A stretch of 64,000 nt of DNA from Candidatus Bathyarchaeia archaeon (GCA_049970895.1 JBMFMB010000002.1:1-64000); one strand, 5' to 3'; shown: positions 20,115 to 34,452, numbered from the stretch's first letter. Notes: generated from the letters alone by a model not told the origin. A program made the numbers and translations.

Positions 20115-21461
20115 TTAGCGGAGTTTCATCAGAACCATTTCAGCAGCTAAAACAAGGGGCTCCCAAGTCTCGTTTAGGGGCGGTGCGTAAGCCGTATCCG
20201 CCTTAGCCAATTCTCGTACAGTCATTTGCTTTTGTATGGCGAATGAGACAGCATTTATGCGTTGGGTTACCTCTTCCCCGCCTATAATTTGGGCTCCGAT
20301 AATGCGCTGAGACTCCTTCTCCGCGATAAGCTTAACTTTTATTGGTAAGGCGCCAGGGTAATAGTCTGCCTTTGTCTTTGAGGTTATGGTTCCTACGACC
20401 GTTTCTATTCCAGCCCTTTTTGCCGCTGTCTCGGTCAAGCCTGTCGCTCCTATTTGCATATCGTATAGTTGGGTTACCGACGAGCCTATTACGCCTGGAA
20501 ATAGTGCGTAGCCTCCCGCCGCATTTATTCCCGCCACTTTTCCTTGTCTTACAGCCACTGTTCCAAGCTGTTGGACGACTGGTTTTTGTGTGACAATGTG
20601 GATGGATTCTGCACAGTCGCCAACAGCGTAAACGTCTTTAACATTGGTTTCCATCCTTGCATTTGTCTTAATGAGTCTAGTTTCGCCTATTGCTATTCCG
20701 GCATCTACAGCAAGTTGTGTATTTGCCCTAACACCGAAGGCGCTGACAAAGAGGTCTGCGCTTATTTGTTCGCCTCCAGCCACTATGCCTGTCACTTTTT
20801 CTGTTCCGAGAAATTCTTCAACTGGTTTGTTGGTCATGATTCTTATGCCCTTCTTCTCCAGCTCTTCTTGGACGGTTTTGGCCATGTCTGCGTCAAGCAT
20901 GGCTGGCAAAACTTGGGGTAGCATTTCCACAACTGTCACTTTTAAGCCCCTTTCTTGTAGGGCTACGGCTGTTTCCAAGCCTATGAGTCCAGCACCCATT
21001 ACAACGGCTGTTTTTGCGCCTTCCTTTATTGATTGGTCTATTCGTTGTCCATCCTCAATTGTTCTTAGGGGCAAGATGCCTTGCTTTTCCCTTCCTTTTA
21101 TTGGTGGTGTGAAAGCGCTGGCACCTGCGGCCATTATTAGGCTGTCGTAGGGGATTTCCTCCGTTTTTCCAGCCTTATCCACTGTTATGACTGCCTTTTT
21201 GCTGGTGTCTATTTTTGTCACTTTTGTTTCCGTTTTTAGGTTCAGTTTCATCATTTGGAAGTAGCTTGGCGGGAAGACTATGAGGTTGCTGAAGCTTGTT
21301 ATTTGTCCGCCTATAACGAAGGGTAAGCCGCATCTGGAGTAGCCGGCATACTTCTCGTCAGTTATTAGGGTTATTTCGGCTGTTCGGTCTGTTTTTCTAG
21401 CGGCTGAGGCTGCATCTACCCCGGCGGCATGCGCCCCAATTATTACTATGCGTCTCGGCAA
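20115..21461 (-). CDS. CoA-disulfide reductase / NADH oxidase family flavoprotein
   Basis: Single redox Cys in YSRCGLP, GAGLIGLE, VYAVGDC, C-terminal AYAPP dimerisation motif. Confidence 0.85.
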   Translation of the reverse strand: MPRRIVIIGAHAAGVDAASAARKTDRTAEITLITDEKYAGYSRCGLPFVIGGQITSFSNLIVFPPSYFQMMKLNLKTETKVTKIDTSKKAVITVDKAGKTEEIPYDSLIMAAGASAFTPPIKGREKQGILPLRTIEDGQRIDQSIKEGAKTAVVMGAGLIGLETAVALQERGLKVTVVEMLPQVLPAMLDADMAKTVQEELEKKGIRIMTNKPVEEFLGTEKVTGIVAGGEQISADLFVSAFGVRANTQLAVDAGIAIGETRLIKTNARMETNVKDVYAVGDCAESIHIVTQKPVVQQLGTVAVRQGKVAGINAAGGYALFPGVIGSSVTQLYDMQIGATGLTETAAKRAGIETVVGTITSKTKADYYPGALPIKVKLIAEKESQRIIGAQIIGGEEVTQRINAVSFAIQKQMTVRELAKADTAYAPPLNETWEPLVLAAEMVLMKLR

Positions 21462-21464
21462 GGG

Positions 21465-21884
21465 CTACTTCCCTTCTTTAATTAGGCTTTTGTGCCACTC
21501 AACAGCCGCGTTAAAGTCCATTAGGTTTTTCAGTTCCGCCTGCAGGTTTGAGGGCTTTATAACGAGAAGCCAGCCCTTTCCATATGGGTCTTCATTTAGG
21601 AGTTCTGGTTTTGACTGGACTTCTGTGTTTACCTCTTCTATTGTTCCGCTTACTGGCGCCACAAGGTCTGATACGGCTTTTACTGATTCAACTGTGCCGT
21701 ATGGCTCGTTCTGTTTTGTTGTGGTTCCCGGGCTTGGCAATTCCGCGTAAACAATTTCTCTTAGCTGTTTTTGGGCGTAGTCTGTTATGCCTACGCGGAC
21801 TTTGTCTCCCTCAATTTTGAGCCATTCAAAATCCTTTGAATAATATAGTCCTTCTGGAACCTCGTATCCGTCAACTTTAACCAC
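21465..21884 (-). CDS. gcvH: Glycine cleavage H protein (lipoyl carrier)
   Basis: VGITDYAQ, VESVKAVSD (lipoyl Lys), APVSG, NEDPYGKGWL. Confidence 0.95.
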   Translation of the reverse strand: MVKVDGYEVPEGLYYSKDFEWLKIEGDKVRVGITDYAQKQLREIVYAELPSPGTTTKQNEPYGTVESVKAVSDLVAPVSGTIEEVNTEVQSKPELLNEDPYGKGWLLVIKPSNLQAELKNLMDFNAAVEWHKSLIKEGK

Positions 21885-22235: not shown

Positions 22236-23741
22236 ATGGGAGAGCAGCTAAAAATAGCATGCGGGGTCTTCGGTGCAATAAATTTTGAAAGGCAGCCCAT
22301 TTTCCCATATGTTTATTGGGGTTTGAGGGCTCAGAATCATAGGGGACATCAGTCCCACGGCTTTCTTACATATGCTGATGGAAAATTCTATGTGCATAGA
22401 AGCCTAGACCTTGTGCCTAAAATAAAGACAAGCGCCCTCGAGGAGTGGTTTGGGCGTTTGCCAGGGCACATTGGGATAGGAAATGTTAGATACACAACTT
22501 CTGGGAAGACGGATGAAACGTCTCTTATAAGGGGCACCCAGCCTGTCACTGCTTCCAAAAACGGTTTAAGGTTGGCTATATCCTTTAACGGCAATGTCGT
22601 CAACACTTTTAAGCTTAAAAAGGTAATCTCCAAAGAGTTTCCAAACTTCTCTTATGAGTGCGACGCCGACCTCATCTGCCACAAACTCCTAATAGAGCTA
22701 GACAAGAGCAAAGATTTGGCTTCTGCCGTGAAATTGTGCATGCAGGAAGTTGAGGGTGCCTTTTCCGTTGCTGGAATAACTGGCGACGGCAAGTTTTTCG
22801 CTTTTAAAGACCCTTATGGTATAAGGCCTCTCTGTGCTGGTCGTGGTGATGGGGGGAAAACCTATGCTTTTTCTTCTGAGAGTGTTGGTTTGGACATAAA
22901 CGGTTTATGTCGGGTCTTTGAGGTGGAGCCCGGCGAATTCATAACGGTCTCCGAAGAGGGGTTTAGGCGTGAAAGGCTTGTAAATTCTGGGCGAAAAGCC
23001 TTTTGCGCCTTCGAGTTTGCCTATTTTGCCAGACCAGATTCCATTTTCGACAAGCGATATGTTTATGAGATTCGCGAGGAGTTTGGAAGAAACCTCGTGA
23101 GGGAGAACTCGGACATTGTTAGGGATGCAGATATAATTATTTCTATGCCGGAAACTGGCGATGACGCTGCTTTTGGGGTTCATGAAGAGTCTGGTTTGAG
23201 GTGGGAGAGGGCAACCCGTAGGCATCGCTATGTGACTGAGCGTGCCTTCATACTGCTTAACAGGGAGCGTTACGCCACCATAGACAAGAAAATTAATATT
23301 TTAGCCTCAAAAGTAAACGGTAAAAGGGTTATAGTGGTGGATGACAGCATCGTCAGAGGCGACACAACAAGGATTACTATTGAGAAGCTTCGCAGAATGG
23401 GCGCAAAGAAAGTCTACTTATTTGTGACTTTCCCCCGCATAATTGGTCCATGCTTCTATGGAATAGACATGGCAACTTATGGGCAGCTCATTGGTGCAAA
23501 GCACACACCCGAAGAGATAGCCAAAATTATAGGGGCGGATGCCGTCTGCTACCAGTCGATAGATGGACTTGTGAGGGCCACTGGCTTCAGAAGGGAAGAG
23601 TTATGCCTAGGCTGTTTAACTGGCGAATATCCAACGCCGCTGGCGCAGAAGATTGCGGATGAGATGAAGAAGAGGTTTTTGGAAGGCTTTGAGGAGACTG
23701 GAAGGCTTTATGAGATTCCAGAGCTTGTTGGCGAGGATTAG
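22236..23741 (+). CDS. purF: Amidophosphoribosyltransferase
   Basis: Propeptide then CGVFG, HRG, RYTTSG, FNGN, GIRPL, CAFEFAYFARPDS, VVDDSIVRGDT, PCFYGID, CLGCLTG. Confidence 0.96.
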   Translation: MGEQLKIACGVFGAINFERQPIFPYVYWGLRAQNHRGHQSHGFLTYADGKFYVHRSLDLVPKIKTSALEEWFGRLPGHIGIGNVRYTTSGKTDETSLIRGTQPVTASKNGLRLAISFNGNVVNTFKLKKVISKEFPNFSYECDADLICHKLLIELDKSKDLASAVKLCMQEVEGAFSVAGITGDGKFFAFKDPYGIRPLCAGRGDGGKTYAFSSESVGLDINGLCRVFEVEPGEFITVSEEGFRRERLVNSGRKAFCAFEFAYFARPDSIFDKRYVYEIREEFGRNLVRENSDIVRDADIIISMPETGDDAAFGVHEESGLRWERATRRHRYVTERAFILLNRERYATIDKKINILASKVNGKRVIVVDDSIVRGDTTRITIEKLRRMGAKKVYLFVTFPRIIGPCFYGIDMATYGQLIGAKHTPEEIAKIIGADAVCYQSIDGLVRATGFRREELCLGCLTGEYPTPLAQKIADEMKKRFLEGFEETGRLYEIPELVGED

Positions 23742-23792
23742 TGGCAAAATAGATTAGCGTCCTCCAGCATTTAGCATTTAAGCGCCAGAAGG

Positions 23793-25217
23793 GTGTGGCA
23801 AATCTTGGTCGAAAAGGTTGGCATACTCGTAGTTTCTTACGGCGCCCGCGAAGTGGCAATGGTTGACGCTTTTTTGCGAAGCACAAAATACGATGTAGAG
23901 GTTTATGTTGCTGATAAACAGCGAAACCCGTTTAACATGAAAAACGCAACGGTGCACGTTGTTATACCAGACTTGAATGTTGAGGCTATATGCAAATTCA
24001 CCGAAAAACATAAAGACCGCATAGACTTCGGCATTGTCGGTCCAGAAAAGCCCATAATTGAGGGCGTCCGCAACCTTGTCGAGAAGCGCACTGGCATACC
24101 GATGATTTGTCCAACTAAAGAGTACGCAATAGAAGCCAGCAAAGTTCAACAGCGCCTGCTGTTCCAGGAGACTGCTCCAGAGGTGAATCCCCGCTTCCGA
24201 ATCTTCCATCCAAAAGAGTTTAAAACACAGGAGGAGGCACGTAAAGCCCTTTACAAGTGGCTTGACGAGCTTGAAAATATGGCTGTTGTTAAGCCGGACA
24301 AGCCAGCAGCTGGCAAGGGTGTAGGCGTATGGGGAGACCACTTCACCACCCGCGAACAGCTCTTTGAGCATTTTTGGGAAAACCTGCGGCACGGTGCGGT
24401 TATAGTTGAAGAGAAAATTGATGGTGAAGAATCCAGCTTCCAAGCTTTCTGTGATGGAAAGCACTTGGTGCCGCTTCCAGAAACGAGGGACTATAAACGC
24501 GCCTTCGACGATGACAAGGGTCCAAACACTGGCGGTATGGGCTCCTATAAGGATTCTGGCGAAATATTACCATTCATGATAGTGGCGGACAGAGAAAATG
24601 AGCTTGAAATCGTAAACAAGATTTTTAGCAGGTGGAAAGCCCAAGACAACCAAGCCCTGAGAGGCATACCCTTCTACGTGGCTTTCATGCACACAGGCAA
24701 AGAGCCGAAAATCCTTGAGAACAACAGCCGCCCAGGCGACCCGGAAATAATTAACATTCTGCCAATTTTGAAGGATGACTTTGTTGATGTGTGCTTCAAA
24801 ATTCTTGACGGCAACTTAACCCGCATAGAAATTGAGAGGATGGCAACAGTAGTGACCTATAAGGTGCCGCCAAGTTATGGAGGCTATGCCGAGGCTTTTC
24901 CAGAACGCGTGAATAGGGCGGAAATAGGCAAGCCAGTAGATCTAACAAAAGCCTATGAACTTGGCAGAAAGTATGGCGACAGAATTCGCGTTTATCCAGC
25001 TTCTATGGAGCTCCGCGACGGCAAAACCTACGCCCTAAAGTCTAGGGCTGTTTGTGTGGTTGGCATAGGCGAGACGATTGAGGATGCCAGAAAAATCTCC
25101 TTAGAGGGCATCAAAGCCATAAATGGCGGAGCTTTGTGGCACCGGAACGACATAGCCTCAAAACAGCATATAGAAAAGAGCATACGCCACATGGAGGCGC
25201 TCAGAAAACGAGGATGA
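23793..25217 (+). CDS. purD: Phosphoribosylamine--glycine ligase (GAR synthetase)
   Basis: VGPEKP, IEASK, VVKPD..AAGKGV, DYKRAFDDDKGPNTGGMGSY, ENNSRPGDPE. Confidence 0.94.
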   Translation: MWQILVEKVGILVVSYGAREVAMVDAFLRSTKYDVEVYVADKQRNPFNMKNATVHVVIPDLNVEAICKFTEKHKDRIDFGIVGPEKPIIEGVRNLVEKRTGIPMICPTKEYAIEASKVQQRLLFQETAPEVNPRFRIFHPKEFKTQEEARKALYKWLDELENMAVVKPDKPAAGKGVGVWGDHFTTREQLFEHFWENLRHGAVIVEEKIDGEESSFQAFCDGKHLVPLPETRDYKRAFDDDKGPNTGGMGSYKDSGEILPFMIVADRENELEIVNKIFSRWKAQDNQALRGIPFYVAFMHTGKEPKILENNSRPGDPEIINILPILKDDFVDVCFKILDGNLTRIEIERMATVVTYKVPPSYGGYAEAFPERVNRAEIGKPVDLTKAYELGRKYGDRIRVYPASMELRDGKTYALKSRAVCVVGIGETIEDARKISLEGIKAINGGALWHRNDIASKQHIEKSIRHMEALRKRG

Positions 25218-26296
25218 AAAAAGTTTTCATTTCGGACTGTGAGGGACCAGTTTCCAAGAATGATAACGCCTTTGAACTAACAGCCCATTACGTGCCTAAC
25301 GGCGAGCACCTCTTCACGGTTATAAGCCGATACGACGATGTGCTCGCAGATGTTGTTAAAAAGCCCGGCTATAAGGCTGGCGACACGCTGAAGCTTATAC
25401 TGCCCTTTCTAAAGGCTTATGGCGTAACAGACCATAAAATGCAGAGTTTTTCTGCCAAGACGCTTCTGCTAATCGCTAATGTTAAGGAGAGTTTGGCTTT
25501 CATCCAGAAAGTTGCCCACGCCTTCATTGTTAGCACAAGCTACGAGCATTATGTTAGGGTGCTGTGCCAAGCTATAGACTTCCCTTTCAAGAAAGTTTAC
25601 TGCACAAGAGTGAATATTGACAAGTATTCGCTTAGCCAAAAAGAGCGGGATAGGCTTAGGGAAATTGCAGCCGAAATTGCCAAAATGCCAATAATCGAAA
25701 TTCCGAAAGGTGCAAGCTCAATCCAAGACTTTCCCAAAGAGCACCAGCAAGTCATAAGGCGGCTTGATGAAATCTTCTGGGAAGAAATAGCCAAAATGCA
25801 GATTGGAAGAGTTTTCAAAGAGGTTAATCCTGTGGGCGGACGTGAAAAAACCGAGGCGGTTATGCAAATAGCCAAAAAGCTGGACATAAGCTTTTCAGAA
25901 ATTGTTTATGTTGGCGACAGCATAACCGACGTTGAAACCTTCAAAACAGTCCGCAACGCAAATGGCTTAACAATATCTTTCAATGGCAACGAATACGCCA
26001 TAAGAGAGGCTGAAATAGCCATAATGTCTGAAAAAGCCCTTGTAATAGCATTGCTAACAGCAGTTTTCTGCAAGTTTGGCAAAGAGGGCGTAATCGAGCT
26101 GGTAAACAACTGGAGCTTTGAAAGGCTTAGGGAGCTTGACGTGGACGCGGAACTGAAAAGTAAGTTTTTTGAGGCTTATGGCGAGAAACTTCCACATGTG
26201 GAAGTTATCACGGCGGCAAATATGGAGAGGCTGGCGGAGGAGAGCAAAGCCTTTCGCAAAACAGTTCGGGGCGAAGCAATAGGGCGTTTGGGCTAG
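25214..26296 (+). CDS. HAD-superfamily hydrolase, EhaR / COG4030-like
   Basis: ISDCEGPVSKNDNAFEL (motif I variant), IVSTSY, GGREK, YVGDSITD, SFNGNEYA; ATGA overlap with the purD stop. Confidence 0.8.
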   Translation: MKKVFISDCEGPVSKNDNAFELTAHYVPNGEHLFTVISRYDDVLADVVKKPGYKAGDTLKLILPFLKAYGVTDHKMQSFSAKTLLLIANVKESLAFIQKVAHAFIVSTSYEHYVRVLCQAIDFPFKKVYCTRVNIDKYSLSQKERDRLREIAAEIAKMPIIEIPKGASSIQDFPKEHQQVIRRLDEIFWEEIAKMQIGRVFKEVNPVGGREKTEAVMQIAKKLDISFSEIVYVGDSITDVETFKTVRNANGLTISFNGNEYAIREAEIAIMSEKALVIALLTAVFCKFGKEGVIELVNNWSFERLRELDVDAELKSKFFEAYGEKLPHVEVITAANMERLAEESKAFRKTVRGEAIGRLG

Positions 26297-26369
26297 GCTT
26301 GTCAAAGGTTTAATAGCCTAAAGCACCAACCTAAAATAATCCCAACGTGAAGCGTGGAGCGGAGGTCTC

Positions 26370-27281
26370 TTGGCGAAAAAGGAGCTTGTGGAGGATACTT
26401 ACGCGGAAGCTTTCGAGGGTATCTACTGCCGAGTTGTCGTTACGGCTGATGATAAGGAAACTCTGCGGAAGGTGGCACTGCATGCAACAGCCACACCATC
26501 CATAGTCATCGGCAGAGTTGAAGGCGGAATAGAAAGGTGGCTGAGCGAAAAGGAAACACCAGACGAGCGCAAAGGTGTGATCCTCCAGTTCTGGGGTGGA
26601 ATAGACCCCAAAAAACCCTTTTCCGACTCCCTCAAAAAATTCGAAATTGAGCTCTCCTATCGTATAAGGCAGGATATCCTCGTGAAACCCTTCACGGCGG
26701 TTTTTGACGCCTTAGAGAATCCGCTGGGCAAAATTGACATGATGGAGCGTGTCGGCCACTGCGGGGACGGCTATGAGTGGGAGGAAAAACGCTACAACCG
26801 CCACGTCATAGTTGTGCCCATCATGGTTCCAGACTTCATAATAGAACGGTTTTTGGGCTATGCCCGCGGGGTTATGGGCGCGAACTTCTGGATAATGTGC
26901 AAGACAAAAGAGGCTGTTATGGAGGCTGGGGCAAAGGCTTTGGAAGCCATCCATAAAGTTGAAGGCGTAATAACGCCCTTCGACATTTGTTCCGCCGGTT
27001 CAAAACCCGAAACCCGCTATCCATGGATAGGACCGACGACAAACCACCCTTACTGTCCATCATTGAAGAGGCTGCTTGGCGAGGAGTCAAAGGTTCCAGA
27101 AGGCGTGAACTACATCCCGGAGATTGTGATAAACGGTGTTTCGCTTGAGGCTGTTAAAAGGGCTATGAAGGCTGGCATTGAGGCTGCATTAAAAGTGCGG
27201 GGTGTCGTGAAAATTTCAGCTGGAAATTATGGTGGAAAACTTGGCGATTACAAGATTCATTTGCGTGAGCTGTTCCCATGA
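26370..27281 (+). CDS. Formylmethanofuran--tetrahydromethanopterin formyltransferase-like protein (Ftr paralog, EhaS-type)
   Basis: [64 protein letters not shown]; has [17 protein letters not shown] where canonical Ftr has, from recall, ATGFxTSVIxCxxEAGI. Confidence 0.88.
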
Positions 27282-28192
27282 AACGTTTTGACGTTATAGG
27301 TTTCGGCGCCCTAAACGTGGACAAACTCTACAAGGTTAATAAGATAGCTGGACCAGAAGGGGAAGGCTTCATAAAAGGCTTCGAAGAGGCATGCGGAGGC
27401 TCGGCAGCCAACACCATTGTGGGCTTGGCGAGGCTAGGCTGCAAAGTTGGCTTTATTGGGAAGGTTGCCAACGACCGCGAGGGCAAAATGCTGCTAGAAG
27501 ATTTCCGCAAGGAAGGCGTAAACACAAAGGGCATTATAAGGGCGAAAACTGGACGAAGCGGAATAGTCATGGGCTTCGTAGATGAAATGGGCGAAAGAGC
27601 CTTATACGTGGACCCGGGCGTAAACGACACCATAAGCTTCGAAGAAATAGATTTGGGATATGCCTGCCAAGCAAAATTCATCCACTTAACGTCCTTTGTC
27701 GGCGAAATGTCCTTCGAAACCCAGAAAAGGCTTGTGAAAAACCTCCCAGAAGACGTTAAAGTAAGCCTAGACCCGGGCGAGCTTTATGCAAGAAAGGGCA
27801 TAAAAGCCCTAAACCCAATTCTGGAGAGAACCTTTGTTTTTATGCCAAATTCTCGTGAGCTGGCACTCTTGACGGGCATGGAGGACCATGTTAAGGGTGC
27901 CGAAAAAATGTTGGGGCTTGGGGTGAAAATTGTTGCAGTCAAACTTAGCGGCAGAGGATGCTACGTCACAGATGGGAAGGAGAGCCACCACGTGGAAGCC
28001 TTCAAAGTGCACATTGTGGACACAACTGGTGCTGGAGACGCCTTTTGTGCTGGCTTCCTCTACGGCTTGTTAAACGCTAAAAGCCTAAAAGAGTGCGCAA
28101 GACTAGGCAATTTTGTTGCTTCCCGTTGCATAATGAAGATGGGTGCCCGCACTGGGCTTCCACGCCTAGAAGAATTAAAATTGCTTCTCTAA
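27278..28192 (+). CDS. PfkB / ribokinase family kinase
   Basis: [39 protein letters not shown]; ATGA overlap with the ftr-like gene. Confidence 0.92.
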
Positions 28193-29014
28193 ATAGTCGA
28201 TTAGGTTTTCGAAGATTAGTTTTCCATCACCGTGTTGTGGCATAAGCCTCTGCCTTGTCCAGTCTGGCTGCTGCCACCAGTAGAAGGCTCTTTCTGGGTG
28301 GGGCATCAAGCCAAAAACTGTTCCTTCTGGGTTGCATATGCCAGCAATGTCGTGGAAAGAGCCGTTTGGGTTTATTGGATAACGTCCCTCAGCATATGTG
28401 CCATCACTTGTGCAGTATCTAAAAACCAGCTGGTCGTTTTCATAAAGCTTCTTCAAATACTGTTTTTCCTTTTCTTTGGCGAATAGGAATCTGCCCTCCG
28501 CGTGGGCGACCGGCATGCGCAAAACCTTTCCTTTCGGAATTTTCCTCGTAAACACGCATTTGCCGTTGTTTTCGTGCCGTATGTAGACCCAGCGGCAATT
28601 ATAGCCCGGAGGATGGTTTGTGGCTAGCGCCGCCTCTGGATAGGGGCTTATGCCATCAAATGCTGGAAGTAAGCCAGCCTCAACAAGCACTTGGAAACCA
28701 TTGCATATGCCGAGAATTGGGCGTCCCTCATCAACGAAAGCCTCCAACTCTTTGCCCATTTTTGAAAGCATCCACTTCGCCCAAATCGCGCCGGCACGCA
28801 CATAATCCCCATAGGAGAAGCCGCCTGGAAAAACCAGAGCATGGTAATCCATAAGGTTTCGCCGCTTAACCACCTCATTCACGTGGAGAATTTGAGCTTG
28901 AACGCCTAAATCCTCAAAGGCTGTCTTTGTTTCAGCGTCGCAGTTTGTTCCGCCAACACGAAGAATACAGACTTTAATTTCTTCGCGTTTCATGTTAGGC
29001 TTCGCCACTGCCAC
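28175..29014 (-). CDS. purQ: FGAM synthase glutaminase subunit
   Basis: GTNCD, PGGFSYGD, LGICNGFQ, HAEGRF, NPNGS, GLMPHPER. Confidence 0.97.
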   Translation of the reverse strand: MAVAKPNMKREEIKVCILRVGGTNCDAETKTAFEDLGVQAQILHVNEVVKRRNLMDYHALVFPGGFSYGDYVRAGAIWAKWMLSKMGKELEAFVDEGRPILGICNGFQVLVEAGLLPAFDGISPYPEAALATNHPPGYNCRWVYIRHENNGKCVFTRKIPKGKVLRMPVAHAEGRFLFAKEKEKQYLKKLYENDQLVFRYCTSDGTYAEGRYPINPNGSFHDIAGICNPEGTVFGLMPHPERAFYWWQQPDWTRQRLMPQHGDGKLIFENLIDYLEKQF

Positions 29015-31388
29015 TGCCGCTTAAGGTGTGCTTCCACCAAGCCAACAACTCACTTATGGACGCATCCACAACAACATTCCCATCCAAGCCATAAACACAA
29101 AGTTTTGGCGTAGCTGTAACTTTTCCAATTCTTGCAAAAGTGCATCCCCGCATAACAGCCTCAAAGTCCCTTTCGCATTTTTCCGGGACCTCCACGAGAA
29201 AGCGGCTATTAGATTCTGCGAAGAGAATGAAGTCGTTTCTTTTCAAGCCTTTTGTTGGGACAAGCCGCAAATCCAGTTCCATGCCATAGCCGCCGGAAAA
29301 AGCCATCTCCGCCGCCGCAACAGCCAATCCCCCTTCCGACAAGTCGTGGCAAGCATTAACCAAGCCATGGTCGATAGCCCTACCTATCGCCTTAAACGTT
29401 TTTCTGGCTTGGCTGACCCGCACCTTAGGCACAGTTTTCCCAGCAAAACCCAACAGCCTATAATATTCTGAGCCGCCAAGCTCATGGTAGGTTTTGCCAA
29501 CAATGTAGATGGAGCTGCCAGGCTCCTTAACATCCGACGAAACCACAACACGGATGTCTGGAATTATCCCAACAGCCGTTATCAGTAGCGTCGGCGTTAC
29601 AGGACCAAGGGGCGACTCATTGTATAGGCTGTCCTTACCAGAAATGAAAGGCGTCCCAAAGGCTTTAGCAAAATCATAGCAAGCCTCACAAGCCCTTACA
29701 AGACTTCCAAGCCTATCTGGTTTTTCAGGATTACCCCACGTAAAATTGTCAAGGAGCGCTATTCTTCTTCCGCCGACAGCCACATTGTTCCTTAATGCCT
29801 CATCTATGGCTGAAGCCGCCATCCAGTATGGGTCAATCTTCCCATATTGCGGGTTTATGCCACAGGAAATCACCAGACCACGCCACGAATCTTTTAGAGG
29901 CTTTAGGACTGCCGCATCATTTGGGCCGCCAAACTCCCCATGCAAGGGCTTTAGAACTGTGTTCCCCTTAACCTCATGGTCGTAAGTTCTGATGACGCTC
30001 TCCTTGCTGGCAATGTTCGGCGAAGAAAGCAGCCTCAAAACAGTGCTGGTCAAGTCTTTTGGTTCTGGTAAGGCTGGTTCCGTAAAAGCTGGTGGCTTAT
30101 ACTCGGCAACCCTAACTGTTCGGGGCGGTTCGAAAAGGAATGAGATGTCCAGCTCAGCAACCTTTACTCCGCCATAATAAATGCGCAAAATCTTGTCATC
30201 AGTATACCGCCCAATAGCAGTGGCTTCAACATCCTCCCCCTCAAAAACCTCCAAAACCCGCGTAAGGTTTTCTGGCGGAACAGCTAAGAGCATCCTCTCT
30301 TGAGACTCGGAAATGTAAATTTCCCAAGGAGCCAAGCCCGGATATTTCAGCGGCACCTTTTCAAGCTCCACAACAGCACCGCAGCCAAAACGTTTGGCGG
30401 TTTCGCCAACAGCGGAGGATAAGCCGCCCCCACCAAGGTCTGTTATGGCTGAAGCTAACTCCAAATTCCTTATGGCGATTATTGCCCTCTTAAGCTTCTC
30501 CTCCTCAATGGGATTCGCAATTTGAACAGCTGGTCTGGAAACCTCCTCAGACTTTTCCGTTAACTCCGCAGAAGCAAAAGTAACCCCGTGGATGCCGTCT
30601 CTTCCAGTTTTTCCTCCAGCCAAAACAATAAAGTCGCCTGGTTTCGCGTTTCTCCTAAACTTTTTTAGTGGCAGAAGCCCGACGCATCCACAATAGACAA
30701 CCACGTTGCCTATATAGCTCTCATCAAAGCATATGGCGCCATTAACCGTCGGTATCCCCATGTTATTGCCATAACTCCCAATACCAGCGACAACGCCCAA
30801 ATACACGTATTTTGGATGCTTAACCCCAGGCGGAAGCCTCTCATAAGGATAATCCAAAGGACCGAAGCCCAAAACATCCATACACGCAATCGGATCAGCC
30901 CAAACCCCCAAAATATCGCGTATGACGCCACCTACACCAGTGGCTGCACCGCCAAAAGGCTCTATAGCTGAGGGGTGATTATGAGTTTCAACCTTCACGG
31001 CTATACCATAACCATTTTCAAAGCGTATTATACCCGCATTATCTTCAAAAACAGAAAAGCACCAGCGGGGATTAAGCTCCCTTGTAACTCTTGCAATATA
31101 AGTTTTGAAGAGGCTGTCAATCTCTTTCCCATCAAACTTTACTATGCCTTTAAAGGTTTTGTGAAAACAGTGCTCAGACCAAGTCTGCCCAAGGGTTTGG
31201 AGTTCAACATCTGTTGGATTTCTACCCTTCTCCTTAAAGTATTTTTGAACAGCCTGCATCTCTTCAAGGTTTAAACCCAAACCAAGCTCACGGCTAACAT
31301 CCAACAACTGCTGGTCAGAGGCATAAGCCAAAGCCACTTCAAAAAGTGGGAAGGGTGTCTCCCTGCGAATGTAGAGGTTTCCGCTCAT
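28995..31388 (-). CDS. purL: FGAM synthase synthetase subunit
   Basis: QTWSEHCFHK, KVETHNHPS..PFGGAATGVGG, GRDGIHG, SESQERM, NFTWGNP, ISGKDSLYN, HDLSEGG. Confidence 0.97.
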   Translation of the reverse strand: MSGNLYIRRETPFPLFEVALAYASDQQLLDVSRELGLGLNLEEMQAVQKYFKEKGRNPTDVELQTLGQTWSEHCFHKTFKGIVKFDGKEIDSLFKTYIARVTRELNPRWCFSVFEDNAGIIRFENGYGIAVKVETHNHPSAIEPFGGAATGVGGVIRDILGVWADPIACMDVLGFGPLDYPYERLPPGVKHPKYVYLGVVAGIGSYGNNMGIPTVNGAICFDESYIGNVVVYCGCVGLLPLKKFRRNAKPGDFIVLAGGKTGRDGIHGVTFASAELTEKSEEVSRPAVQIANPIEEEKLKRAIIAIRNLELASAITDLGGGGLSSAVGETAKRFGCGAVVELEKVPLKYPGLAPWEIYISESQERMLLAVPPENLTRVLEVFEGEDVEATAIGRYTDDKILRIYYGGVKVAELDISFLFEPPRTVRVAEYKPPAFTEPALPEPKDLTSTVLRLLSSPNIASKESVIRTYDHEVKGNTVLKPLHGEFGGPNDAAVLKPLKDSWRGLVISCGINPQYGKIDPYWMAASAIDEALRNNVAVGGRRIALLDNFTWGNPEKPDRLGSLVRACEACYDFAKAFGTPFISGKDSLYNESPLGPVTPTLLITAVGIIPDIRVVVSSDVKEPGSSIYIVGKTYHELGGSEYYRLLGFAGKTVPKVRVSQARKTFKAIGRAIDHGLVNACHDLSEGGLAVAAAEMAFSGGYGMELDLRLVPTKGLKRNDFILFAESNSRFLVEVPEKCERDFEAVMRGCTFARIGKVTATPKLCVYGLDGNVVVDASISELLAWWKHTLSGSGSGEA

Positions 31389-31636
31389 CTTTCCTCCTCA
31401 ACCATTATGGTGTAATTGTCCTTTGTGGGGTTAGCCAAAAGCCTCTTACACATCTCCTCAGCCTTAGCCAAGGCTTCATCCCTAGAATCGGCTAAAACAA
31501 TAACGCTGTAAACCTTGCTAACGCCAACCCTTTCAACTCTATAGCCAAGCTCCTTAAGCAAACGGGCTGTGGTTTCGCCTTCTGGGTCGCTGTGCCCCGG
31601 TTTCAAGCCAACCTCAATTTTAAGACGATACCTCAT
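31385..31636 (-). CDS. purS: FGAM synthase PurS subunit
   Basis: LKPGHSDPEG, MCKRLLANP, located between purM and purL. Confidence 0.92.
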   Translation of the reverse strand: MRYRLKIEVGLKPGHSDPEGETTARLLKELGYRVERVGVSKVYSVIVLADSRDEALAKAEEMCKRLLANPTKDNYTIMVEEER

Positions 31637-31691
31637 AGGCTAAATTAAACCCAAAGCCGATTTAAACACTTTCACCACAGAAAAGGCAAAC

Positions 31692-32789
31692 TTACCTTTT
31701 TAAAACAATTCTCCTACCCTTATAAAAGATTCGGATTCCACGAGTACCCGTAACACGCCCAATCGCTTCGGCGTGCACCCCAGACCTTTCCAAAACGTCA
31801 ACAGCCTTATCCACCTCTTGTTTTTCAACCACTATTGCAAAACCCCAACCCATATTAAAAGTCTTAAACATCTCCTCATCTGATATTTTGCCGCCAAGCT
31901 CGGAAGCAGCCCTCTGAATGACTTCAAAAATGGGCTGAGGCTTAAAATTGTCAAACTCAAAGCCTATACCCTTCGAGAAAAGCGTCAAACGGTCAAATTT
32001 TAAGTAGGCATCACCAGTAATATGCACAGCGGCCTTAACCCTAACCTCGTCTGCAACCCGCAGAAAAGGCTTAACATAAATTTTAGTGGGCTCTAAAACC
32101 TCATAAACCAATTCCCTTTCAAGAGGCTCAACAACGTCAAACTGGTCGTATCTACCACCCCAACACTTAAACAAAACCTTACGCGCCAAAGTCACACCAT
32201 TGCTGTGGATTCCAGAACTCCGCAGGCCAACAACAACATCGCCGGGCTTCAAATTCCTCCCATAAATAACCTTGTCTTTAGAAACTTCGCCAACAGAGGC
32301 AAAAACCATGTCAAAACCCTTCCCCTCCGCCAAACCCCTAATCAACTCGGCAACATCACCAATCTCACCGCCCGGAACAACACATTCAGCCTCCACGGCA
32401 CCTTTCACTATACCCTTCATCCACTCCCTAACCAAAACCGGATCAGAAACCTGAGCGTGAATATTATCCACAACAGCCAAAGGCCTAGCCCCGGAACGAA
32501 TAACATCATTAACAGCCATAGCCACACCATCAACACCAATAGTATCATATTTGTCGGCCAACTGAGCCACCAAAACCTTAGTGCCAACCCCCTCCACCAC
32601 AAGATCCAAAAAATAGCCATCACGAAAAGGAAAAATCACACCATAAGGAAGCCGCACAACCCCACCATAACGACTAAAACCATAAGTCCTCCGCAAAAGA
32701 CGCAAAGCACCTTTCGCCCTCGTCCTCAACCCCCTATCAACACCGGCACCAGCATAAGTAAAATCCCTACGCAACAATAATCCTCCCAA
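31692..32789 (-). CDS. purM: Phosphoribosylformylglycinamidine cyclo-ligase (AIR synthetase)
   Basis: YAGAGVD, EGVGTK, AMAVND, GGE, SSGIHSNG, EPTKIY, HITG, TFNMGWG. Confidence 0.95.
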   Translation of the reverse strand: MGGLLLRRDFTYAGAGVDRGLRTRAKGALRLLRRTYGFSRYGGVVRLPYGVIFPFRDGYFLDLVVEGVGTKVLVAQLADKYDTIGVDGVAMAVNDVIRSGARPLAVVDNIHAQVSDPVLVREWMKGIVKGAVEAECVVPGGEIGDVAELIRGLAEGKGFDMVFASVGEVSKDKVIYGRNLKPGDVVVGLRSSGIHSNGVTLARKVLFKCWGGRYDQFDVVEPLERELVYEVLEPTKIYVKPFLRVADEVRVKAAVHITGDAYLKFDRLTLFSKGIGFEFDNFKPQPIFEVIQRAASELGGKISDEEMFKTFNMGWGFAIVVEKQEVDKAVDVLERSGVHAEAIGRVTGTRGIRIFYKGRRIVLKR

Positions 32790-33016: not shown

Positions 33017-33140
33017 CCGTTTACTAAATTTTATTTTGCAGCTGAAATTGGAATGGCAAACGTTAAAATGGTTTGCATGTTTCAACATATTAGACGGTTA
33101 AGTTGCTTTGAAATGTGCGTGAAGTTTGTGGTGTTTGGAT

Positions 33141-34019
33141 TTGCACTTGCCAGTTATGAAGAATGAGGTTATTCGTTTTCTTGCTCCAAAGTTGGGTGAG
33201 GATTTTGTTGATTGCACCGTGGGTTTAGGTGGTCATGCTTTGGCGATTTTGGATCGGACGAGGCCTTCTGGTAGGGTTTTGGGGATAGACGCCGACCCAA
33301 CAATCTTGGAGAGGCTCAAGCGCAAACTGGAGGGTACAGATTATGAGGAGCGTTTAGTTCTTGTATGCGATAACTTTGCAAACTTGGGCGAGATAGTTAA
33401 GAAATACTCCTTTAGAAGTGTTTCTGGAGTTTTGTTTGATTTGGGTTTGTCCAGTTGGCACTTAGAGGAAAGTGGTCGTGGATTTTCTTTTCTCCGAAAT
33501 GAGCCGCTGGATATGCGGTACAGTCCGGAGAGTCCGCTGACAGCCGAGGCCATAGTGAACTTTTGGAGTTTGAAAGACCTTTGGAGGATTCTGAGGGTTT
33601 ATGGGCAGGAAAGGTTTTCGAGGAGAATTGCCGAGGAAATTGTGCGGTCCAGACCTTTGAGGACGACTGTGGATTTGGTTATGGCTGTTGAGAGGGCGAC
33701 GCCTTCATGGTATCATAGGGGGAGAATCCATTTTGCAACAAAAACCTTTCAGGCTTTGAGAATAGCCGTGAACAATGAGTTGGAGAATTTGGAGAGGGCC
33801 CTGCCTCAAGCCCTCGACATAATGGGTAATGGTGGCAGACTTGTGGTTATAGCTTTCCATTCTTTGGAAGACCGCATTGTTAAGAATTTTCTGAGGGAAA
33901 AGGCCAAGGAAGGTGTTGTTAAAATTTTGACGAAAAAGCCTGTCCGACCATCTAAGGCTGAGGTTGCGGAGAATCCTAGGGCTAGGTCGGCAAGGCTTAG
34001 GGCTGCATTGAAGGTTTGA
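33141..34019 (+). CDS. rsmH: 16S rRNA m4C1402 methyltransferase (RsmH/MraW), bacterial type
   Basis: HLPVM, DCTVGLGGH, FDLGLSS, RGFSF...PLDMR, ATKTFQALRIAVNNEL, FHSLEDRIVK, NPRARSARLR; start set at TTG 33141 (ORF track begins at 33126). Confidence 0.95.
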   Translation: MHLPVMKNEVIRFLAPKLGEDFVDCTVGLGGHALAILDRTRPSGRVLGIDADPTILERLKRKLEGTDYEERLVLVCDNFANLGEIVKKYSFRSVSGVLFDLGLSSWHLEESGRGFSFLRNEPLDMRYSPESPLTAEAIVNFWSLKDLWRILRVYGQERFSRRIAEEIVRSRPLRTTVDLVMAVERATPSWYHRGRIHFATKTFQALRIAVNNELENLERALPQALDIMGNGGRLVVIAFHSLEDRIVKNFLREKAKEGVVKILTKKPVRPSKAEVAENPRARSARLRAALKV

Positions 34020-34035: not shown

Positions 34036-34452
34036 CTATGGTGGTTTTATGGCTTTCAGTGTTGGTTCAAGTTCTTTAATTCTTTTGAGGATTATGTCTG
34101 AGTGGATGGTTATCCATGGGCTTGGGTTTTTAATTTTGCATATGCATATGGTTTTCTTACCCCTCATTTTTGCGTAGAACAGCTCCATGCATGTTCCAGC
34201 GGAAAGTTTAGGCATGTAGGCGATTAGGATGTCGCATTTCTCTATGTCTTCTAAATCCCTTTTAATGAAGTCTGCTGCTGGCACTTTCTCCCACCAACCA
34301 TGTTCTTTGCTTCTATAGATTATTTTTTCGCGTTGCCACGGGTCGATGGGCTCGTATCCGCAGCGGATGCAGATGCGCCTAATTGTCTCTCTATAAGACT
34401 GCCTTTTCTCCATTCCCTGTATTGGACCTGAAATGAAGACTTTACACCTCAT
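34036..34452 (-). CDS. Nucleoside 2-deoxyribosyltransferase / nucleotide N-hydrolase-like protein
   Basis: VFISGPI, RDLEDIEKCDILIA, SAGTCMELFYA. Confidence 0.75.
   Translation of the reverse strand: MRCKVFISGPIQGMEKRQSYRETIRRICIRCGYEPIDPWQREKIIYRSKEHGWWEKVPAADFIKRDLEDIEKCDILIAYMPKLSAGTCMELFYAKMRGKKTICICKIKNPSPWITIHSDIILKRIKELEPTLKAIKPP

Follow-up and report, generated by a model that had tools for sequence, protein, structure and literature searches.

A HAD-Ftr2-PfkB gene trio in archaeal purine operons as a candidate for the missing formylation of glycinamide ribonucleotide

The window analyzed here is a 64,000-nucleotide stretch of DNA from Candidatus Bathyarchaeia archaeon (GCA_049970895.1, JBMFMB010000002.1:1-64000), and all positions are counted from its first letter. 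Between positions 22236 and 32789 it carries a purine biosynthesis cluster. Steps 1, 2, 4, and 5 of the pathway are present in this cluster, and together with them lie genes for a HAD-like protein, a divergent member of the Ftr formyltransferase family (Ftr2), and a PfkB-type kinase. None of these three proteins contains a PurN-type fold or a PurT-type ATP-grasp domain by Pfam. We examined this trio as a candidate for step 3, the formylation of glycinamide ribonucleotide (GAR) to formylglycinamide ribonucleotide (FGAR). The genes of the cluster are as follows, where FGAM is formylglycinamidine ribonucleotide and AIR is aminoimidazole ribonucleotide.

22236-23741, plus strand: purF, amidophosphoribosyltransferase (step 1), GATase_7/GATase_6; opens the plus-strand operon
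23793-25217, plus strand: purD, GAR synthetase (step 2), with all three domains GARS_N, GARS_A, and GARS_C
25214-26296, plus strand: HAD-like protein of the AF1437 family, 360 amino acids, matching PDB 1Y8A; motif I D-x-E-G
26370-27281, plus strand: Ftr2 (ftr-like), 303 amino acids; FTR 149.7 bits, FTR_C 204.1 bits
27278-28192, plus strand: PfkB/ribokinase-like kinase, 304 amino acids; PfkB 180 bits
28175-29014, minus strand: purQ, glutaminase subunit of FGAM synthase (step 4); GATase_5 237 bits
28995-31388, minus strand: purL, FGAM synthase (step 4); AIRS, AIRS_C, and FGAR-AT_linker
31385-31636, minus strand: purS (step 4); PurS 71.5 bits
31692-32789, minus strand: purM, AIR synthetase (step 5); AIRS/AIRS_C

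Open reading frames (ORFs) and Pfam matches place purF-purD-HAD-Ftr2-PfkB on the plus strand, facing purM-S-L-Q on the minus strand, and purQ converges on the PfkB gene with an 18-bp overlap. The ATG of the HAD gene at 25214 shares an ATGA with the purD stop codon (TGA, 25215-25217), and the ATG of the PfkB gene at 27278 likewise shares an ATGA with the stop codon of the ftr-like gene (27279-27281). The ftr-like gene starts with TTG, 7 nt 3' of a GGAGG and 73 nt past the HAD stop codon. The original prediction, made from the DNA of the window, had listed the same gene content and both ATGA overlaps, and they were confirmed by the ORFs, the Pfam matches, and the sequence. The purD product is full length and somewhat divergent (TIGR00877, 256.6 bits over positions 3-423 of 425; cut-off 288), and purD is a single-copy gene in the genome.

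The source genome is 1.34 Mb in 79 contigs and is 97.3% complete. The absence of purN and purT, first claimed for the cluster, holds genome-wide at this completeness: a profile search of the whole genome with Formyl_trans_N (PF00551) gave no match, and the best score to the purT model TIGR01142 was 38 bits, compared with a cut-off of 502. A tblastn search of the whole genome with PurN, PurN-like, and PurT proteins of relatives returned nothing at or above 45 bits. PurH was not found in the genome, and PurP is present in one copy on contig C7, where PurE also lies. The genome has two Ftr-family genes, the window Ftr2 and a separate canonical ftr (Ftr1, 186 bits to FTR) on contig C16, and the two proteins are 37% identical.

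Ftr2 matched three archaeal Ftr structures with E values of 1e-53 to 3e-52. It scored above the cut-off of the NCBIfam subfamily NF002554 (354 bits vs 297) and below that of TIGR03119, the equivalog of the characterized enzyme (242.5 bits vs 292.6). In a 59-row tree, the window Ftr2 fell in an 11-row group, and the Ftr1 of the same genome fell in a separate canonical group of 41 rows (support by the Shimodaira-Hasegawa-like approximate likelihood ratio test, SH-aLRT, 99). A 73-row tree was then made from 14 of the 80 Bathyarchaeia loci described below (every sixth), four other Bathyarchaeia, five members of family f47 of a second Thermoproteota class, 20 loci of an Asgard-like phylum, 27 representatives, and the two Ftr copies of the source genome. 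It placed 54 Ftr2 rows apart from 17 Ftr1 rows (supports 83 and 94). In both trees the window protein stood outside canonical Ftr and within a distinct Ftr2 group, in agreement with its earlier description as an Ftr paralog. The two groups were also separated by profile A2, built from eight Ftr2 sequences, to which Ftr2 proteins scored at least 340 bits and Ftr1 proteins at most 278 bits. Fused Ftr representatives (P0164, P0170, P0172, and others) proved to be FwdA/FwdC-type fusions of canonical Ftr and were uninformative on Ftr2.

Ftr2 resembles Ftr (EC 2.3.1.101; PDB 1FTR/2FHJ, 1M5H, 1M5S) and FhcD (6S6Y) in its two-lobe fold, as assigned by Pfam, and in the glutamate at the catalytic position. 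This residue, E251, is invariant in all 54 Ftr2 and 17 Ftr1 rows and aligns with the Glu of the EIVING motif in the PDB chains. Judging from this motif, its column would be that of the catalytic, oxyanion-stabilizing glutamate, given as Glu252 of FhcD in a passage of PMC6926001. In other respects Ftr2 differs from canonical Ftr: it is only about 37-40% identical, forms its own clade, and is found in pur operons and not among genes of the one-carbon (C1) pathway, and the source genome carries canonical Ftr as well. Fifteen positions are conserved in at least 90% of the Ftr2 rows and rare in Ftr1. Ftr2-specific residues include Trp75, which is invariant and lies in a 9-residue insert, Arg100, Cys131, Trp174, and Gly221-Pro222. 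Arg100 is invariant in Ftr2 and is a glycine in most Ftr1 proteins, and Cys131 is replaced by phenylalanine in all 17 Ftr1 rows.

The HAD-like protein is homologous to AF1437 of Archaeoglobus fulgidus (PDB 1Y8A; E 8e-33). Its predicted model (predicted local distance difference test score 93.7) had Foldseek template-modeling scores of 0.81/0.92 to 1Y8A, with SerB/ThrH (type IB) next at about 0.45, and its predicted fold is that of a Rossmannoid HAD protein with a cap. Residues D8, E10, G11, K212, and G234-D235-S236-I237-x-D239 are invariant in Bathyarchaeia, f47, and the Asgard-like phylum. D8 is the nucleophilic aspartate, K212 is the lysine of motif III, GDSIxD (234-239) is motif IV, and the STS of motif II is retained. 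Motif I invariably has glutamate as its second acid (D-x-E-G, not D-x-D) in these three groups and in AF1437, which shares D-x-E-G-P with the HAD-like protein. AF1437 is a structural genomics target with no function assigned, and a literature search on its name found no relevant paper. We propose that the HAD-like protein might be a GAR 5'-phosphatase or phosphotransferase. In the kinase, the PfkB domain (PF00294, 179.7 bits) spans residues 9-295. Its top NCBIfam match is ribokinase (TIGR02152, 171.7 bits vs a cut-off of 299.65), followed by ribose-1-phosphate kinases. The remaining equivalog models were further under their own cut-offs, and no characterized kinase equivalog was reached. Its nearest kin act on the 5-OH of ribofuranose, and we suggest that it could be a 5'-kinase that restores the phosphate.

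Linkage was examined in the best 80 of 547 relatives, all of them Bathyarchaeia in separate records with Ftr2 proteins 72-93% identical to that of the window, and each neighbor was counted over the loci with enough flank. Ftr2 directly follows the HAD gene in 65 of 70 loci and is itself directly followed by the PfkB gene in 72 of 75, while purD and purF lie upstream in 59/64 and 54/59 loci, respectively. At least one pur gene was found at 76 of the 80 Ftr2 loci. The pur linkage is thus conserved in relatives, and it recurs with other gene orders in the Asgard-like phylum. One locus (L082) has an inverted second purF-purD-HAD-Ftr2-PfkB copy with many frame breaks, and in another (L049) the cluster is split into many short frames; these look like assembly or long-read errors, not biology.

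To examine complementarity, we searched 251 genomes spread evenly over Bathyarchaeia, each 90% or more complete, with the window Ftr2, PF00551, the purT model, and GARS_A, and the groups were tallied by hand. PurD was found in 230 genomes. Among the 156 that also have Ftr2 (counting G046, in which a contig end truncates Ftr2), one has a Formyl_trans_N gene, none has PurT or a PurT-like gene, and 155 have neither. The 74 genomes with PurD and without Ftr2 comprise 59 with Formyl_trans_N, nine with PurT or PurT-like genes, and six with neither. The sole Formyl_trans_N gene in an Ftr2 genome (G089) is PurN-like and scored 108 bits, and a PurT-like match in the Ftr2 genome G172 was rejected as PurK. 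Grouped by GTDB family, Ftr2 is the sole type in 12 families, the PurN/PurT types are the only ones in another 12, and three families are mixed. In family f28, 15 of 23 genomes have PurD, and PurN occurs in these same 15 and in no others, and family f13 includes five genomes with PurT, one with Ftr2, one with PurN, and one with none. The trio and PurN/PurT are therefore complementary in Bathyarchaeia, as they are in the second Thermoproteota class described below.

The slot directly behind purD depends on the lineage. It is occupied by PurN in 12 Bathyarchaeia genomes, by a PurN-like gene in four (G031, G134, G068, G008), and by PurT or a PurT-like gene in four others (G074, G013, G050, G004); in Ftr2 genomes of other families, it is HAD-Ftr2-PfkB that stands there (L113, L115, L122-L125). 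Among the 59 Formyl_trans_N matches, 21 score as full-length PurN and 38 are PurN-like. The PurT-type genes of f13 (five of the nine) are divergent, with 224-253 bits, and the PurT-like genes of G014 (f13) and G004 (f14) scored 246-254 bits, compared with the NF006766 cut-off of 339. The position directly behind purD supports these divergent PurN-like and PurT-like genes as putative step 3 genes.

Several of these genes deserve a mention of their own. Two divergent PurN-like families of about 260-290 amino acids, scoring 76-101 bits, occur in Ftr2-free Bathyarchaeia (L103:9725-10564, L086:9505-10335, L094:9602-10471, and relatives), and they are probably unrecognized GAR (or other) formyltransferases. 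In G134 and G068, the PurN-like gene behind purD is followed by a second, PurN-grade gene. The PurT of family f18 (L106:11168-12574, L107:3469-4932) has an insert that splits the model match (1-233, 228-377) in an ORF of about 470 amino acids, and it passes NF006766 with 482 bits.

The same distribution bears on the possibility that the module frees or activates a C1 unit, such as formate or a formyl carrier, for ATP-grasp ligases such as PurP, one of which would formylate GAR instead of Ftr2. PurP, which requires formate, is encoded in the source genome, and bacterial FhcD, an Ftr homolog, acts in formate release according to part of PMC6926001. However, the cluster has no FhcA-type amidohydrolase, the genome has only the single PurP copy, and genomes with PurT need formate too, yet they are without the module. 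The roles of the HAD-like protein and the kinase are also left unexplained. We regard this as the least probable of the alternatives considered here.

A search of 401 Thermoproteota genomes found Ftr2 in only one family outside Bathyarchaeia, f47, where all five genomes carry it. All five have PurD, and neither PF00551 nor PurT was found in any of them, the top PurT matches being ORFs of carbamoyl-phosphate-synthase size. A divergent HAD-like gene is present in all five; it was missed by the window HAD protein as a single query and was found with a divergent local homolog and the HAD-like profile A4. PfkB abuts the HAD-like gene in four of the five genomes, and in the fifth the HAD-like gene overlaps the start of Ftr2. 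In f47, Ftr2 is not near purD. In one f47 genome (G477; L130:10053-12011), Ftr2 and canonical Ftr1 lie tail to tail, and the adjoining genes are those of carbon monoxide dehydrogenase/acetyl-CoA synthase (CdhC, CdhD).

The Asgard-like sample of 131 genomes was reached via the genome of locus L068 (labeled Candidatus Thorarchaeota). PurD was found in 88 genomes, PF00551 in 69, PurT in three, and Ftr2 in 27 with scores of 350 bits or more; one further genome has a partial Ftr2. The 25 genomes with both PurD and Ftr2 divide into 12 with PurN, none with PurT, and 13 with neither. For the 63 with PurD and without Ftr2, the corresponding numbers are 53, 3, and 7. Two loci have the order purF-purD-HAD-Ftr2-PfkB-purL-purQ-purM. 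Three others read purS-Q-L-F-D-Ftr2, and two of the three genomes have a PfkB-HAD pair close to purM. A further three read purS-Q-L-F-D-HAD-PfkB-purE-purB-purM-purP or similar, with Ftr2 elsewhere, and six loci of a PurN-keeping clade read purD-HEAT-HAD. Each of the trio genes therefore occurs behind purD in some Asgard-like lineage. Of the 16 searched genomes with Ftr2 and PurD, 12 have the HAD gene downstream of purD at a distance of up to about 2 kb. A profile search detected a full-length HAD-like gene in all of 17 Ftr2 genomes and in none of 17 Ftr2-free genomes with PurN and PurD, which gave only partial matches of 25-37 bits.

Two further observations concern the Asgard-like loci. At L174-L177, L179, and L180, a small HEAT-repeat protein of about 162 amino acids lies between purD and the HAD-like gene. 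At L185 (G626:C35), purS-Q-L-F is followed directly by HAD-PfkB without purD between, and a GARS_A match was found nowhere in the G626 genome.

These patterns also bear on whether Ftr2 alone formylates GAR itself, with the HAD-like protein and PfkB serving in salvage, flux control, or the handling of the unstable phosphoribosylamine. At the three purD-Ftr2 loci neither HAD nor PfkB stands beside Ftr2, in f47 Ftr2 is usually apart from the PfkB-HAD pair, and the invariant Arg100, which replaces a glycine and is specific to Ftr2, could bind a phosphate. Nevertheless, the HAD-like gene and Ftr2 co-occur strictly in the Asgard-like genomes searched (17/17 vs 0/17), and all five f47 genomes retain all three genes. 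A salvage role would also leave unexplained why HAD is absent from genomes that have PurN and no Ftr2. We consider this explanation rather unlikely, although it is the strongest of the alternatives.

The trio might instead serve in the biosynthesis or repair of methanopterin or methanofuran, or Ftr2 might simply be a second Ftr isoenzyme, its position among pur genes being incidental. The score above the Ftr subfamily cut-off and the retained glutamate fit such a role. So do the methanogen genes, which are co-transcribed with a hydrogenase operon as described in part of PMC3087415, and one Asgard clade, in which Ftr2 occurs with PurN and without pur context. However, 64 Bathyarchaeia genomes with Ftr1 only, as well as Asgard-like Ftr1 genomes (e.g. 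G590, G693, G702, G681), are without Ftr2 and, where tested, without HAD. Thus, the trio is not needed for the use of methanopterin and methanofuran cofactors. Moreover, each of its genes lies behind purD in some lineage, and it recurs in three deep lineages with several gene orders. The 15 clade-specific substitutions, including that of the phenylalanine invariant in the 17 Ftr1 rows by Cys131, also argue against a mere isoenzyme. This explanation is improbable in our view.

We therefore return to purine synthesis. The trio is the best candidate for the missing step because it sits after purD, where related archaea carry PurN or PurT. All three deep lineages keep the three genes in the genome, and each gene is found directly behind purD somewhere. 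The replacement of PurN or PurT in that slot, the strict co-occurrence of HAD and Ftr2 where tested, and the recurrence in three deep lineages fit the pattern expected of a non-orthologous displacement at step 3. The cofactor logic fits as well, since the carrier lineages have the methanopterin/methanofuran C1 pathway. Gene content, linkage, co-occurrence, and complementarity support the original interpretation of the trio as a purine module, and for Ftr2 itself the activity is one that we infer. On balance, the HAD-Ftr2-PfkB module probably performs step 3 in archaea that use tetrahydromethanopterin (H4MPT) and methanofuran and are without PurN and PurT.

How the three proteins might do so can be outlined. 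With its Ftr fold and catalytic-position glutamate, Ftr2 would be the formyltransferase. Ftr chemistry is reversible between a primary aminomethyl group and N5 of H4MPT, as stated in part of PMC6926001. Ftr2 would draw the formyl group from N5-formyl-H4MPT (or from formyl-methanofuran) and load it onto the glycyl amino group, in place of the aminomethyl group of methanofuran. The HAD-like protein might strip the 5'-phosphate from GAR, Ftr2 would then formylate the GAR riboside, and the ribokinase-like PfkB protein would add the phosphate again with ATP to give FGAR. By this route the net ATP cost would be the same as with PurT. It is the simplest scheme in which a HAD phosphatase, a formyltransferase, and a kinase for the 5-OH of ribofuranose would all have a part. 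We put it forward tentatively, as the likeliest of the possible roles for HAD and PfkB. Glycinamide riboside and formylglycinamide riboside, made by a D-x-E HAD protein, Ftr2, and the kinase with a donor from the C1 pool, might then be intermediates new to the de novo pathway, although we hold this possibility with reserve. Equally speculative is that the scheme would account for what may be the same genes at the end of the eha operon: Eha would refill the C1 cycle that the module drains.

There are precedents for parts of this scheme. The riboflavin pathway uses a phosphatase and riboflavin kinase in a dephosphorylate-then-rephosphorylate route, and the aminoimidazole riboside kinase of Salmonella is a PfkB protein that acts on the riboside of a purine intermediate. 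Thus, a HAD phosphatase and a later kinase can bracket chemistry on an unphosphorylated form, and PfkB proteins can act on ribosides of purine intermediates, but these examples belong to other pathways or to salvage. To our knowledge, no phosphate bracket is known around GAR formylation.

Several observations weigh against assigning step 3 to the trio or against the scheme just outlined. Removing and restoring the phosphate looks wasteful, and the Ftr2-specific Arg100 could fit a phosphorylated substrate equally well. Ftr2 lies apart from HAD and PfkB usually in f47 and in some Asgard genomes. A bona fide PurN stands alongside Ftr2 in 12 of the 25 Asgard-like PurD genomes. The Ftr2 proteins of PurN-bearing genomes form one clade (SH-aLRT 99; 11 loci, nine of them from PurN genomes), and the Ftr2 genes of this clade have no pur neighbors. 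As PurN, Ftr2, and HAD coexist in this clade, Ftr2 does not stand in for PurN in every lineage; the clade may be redundant in this respect, or its Ftr2 may serve another function. The complementarity itself could come partly from the use of folate or methanopterin by each lineage, and the relatives are not independent and include few switches. It also depends on taking the PurN-like proteins as putative GAR formyltransferases; their top NCBIfam match is PurN, all 38 are below its cut-off of 150 (76-108 bits in those scanned), and at strict cut-offs the known enzymes cover only 30 of the 74 Ftr2-free genomes. The PurN-like gene of family f19 lies away from purD, in genomes with scattered pur genes. 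Finally, the six Bathyarchaeia and seven Asgard-like genomes that have PurD and no candidate at all make 13 genomes in total.

Compared with known systems, the module shares with PurN (10-formyl-tetrahydrofolate) and PurT (formate/ATP) the slot after purD, and in Bathyarchaeia it nearly excludes them. It differs from them in its unrelated folds, in its three genes instead of one, and in a methanopterin or methanofuran donor in place of folate or formate. A possible counterpart is EhaR-EhaS-EhaT at the end of the Methanothermobacter ehaA-T operon, where, by annotation alone, EhaS is an Ftr and EhaT a ribokinase (PMC3087415, in part). There the context is a hydrogenase operon, unlike the pur operon here, and the part of that paper considered treats the co-transcribed EhaS and EhaT as hydrogenase subunits.

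The suggestion, originally made from recall, that several methanopterin-using archaea lack a GAR transformylase is in print. Part of PMC3261824 reports the GAR formyltransferase as missing in Archaeoglobi, Methanobacteriales-type methanogens, and Methanopyrus, and states that PurN requires formyl-tetrahydrofolate. One section of PMC9012536 describes an uncharacterized Ftr2 clade in the anaerobic methanotrophic archaea ANME-1 and ANME-2a/b, Archaeoglobales, Methanopyrus, and Methanothermobacter. Another section of PMC9012536 reports PurN and PurT as lacking in ANME-1, Archaeoglobales, and Methanobacteriales, and in these sections the two observations are not joined. A full-text literature search found no paper that ties Ftr2 or EhaS to GAR formylation. 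The complementarity in Bathyarchaeia, the lineage-dependent slot behind purD, and the f47 and Asgard-like patterns are new here.

The gap at step 3 in Archaeoglobi, Methanobacteriales, Methanopyrus, and ANME-1 has stood since at least 2011, and Bathyarchaeia, a second Thermoproteota class, and part of the Asgard-like phylum are now added to the list. If the proposed role is correct, nucleotide synthesis would be linked to an enzyme of the methanogenesis type, and the methanopterin/methanofuran C1 pool would feed purines directly, with neither folate nor free formate involved. Re-annotation would be due for thousands of genes named canonical Ftr, ribokinase, or 'HAD hydrolase', 1Y8A would gain a function, and there would be an explanation for the puzzling last genes of the eha operon.

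Other genes adjoin the cluster in the window. Directly upstream of purF and divergent from it (20115-21884, minus strand) lie a GCV_H gene (135 bits) and a gene for a dihydrolipoamide-dehydrogenase-like flavoprotein, adjoined by those for glyceraldehyde-3-phosphate dehydrogenase and phosphoglycerate kinase. Glycine is the substrate of PurD, and the glycine cleavage system is a further C1 source. On the other side, positions 33126-34019 (plus strand) encode a full-length RsmH/MraW-type methyltransferase (Methyltransf_5, 321 bits) in this archaeal genome, and at least one relative (L009) likewise has this gene conserved next to its pur cluster. A nucleoside 2-deoxyribosyltransferase-like gene (34036-34452, minus strand; 42 bits) follows it near the purine cluster.

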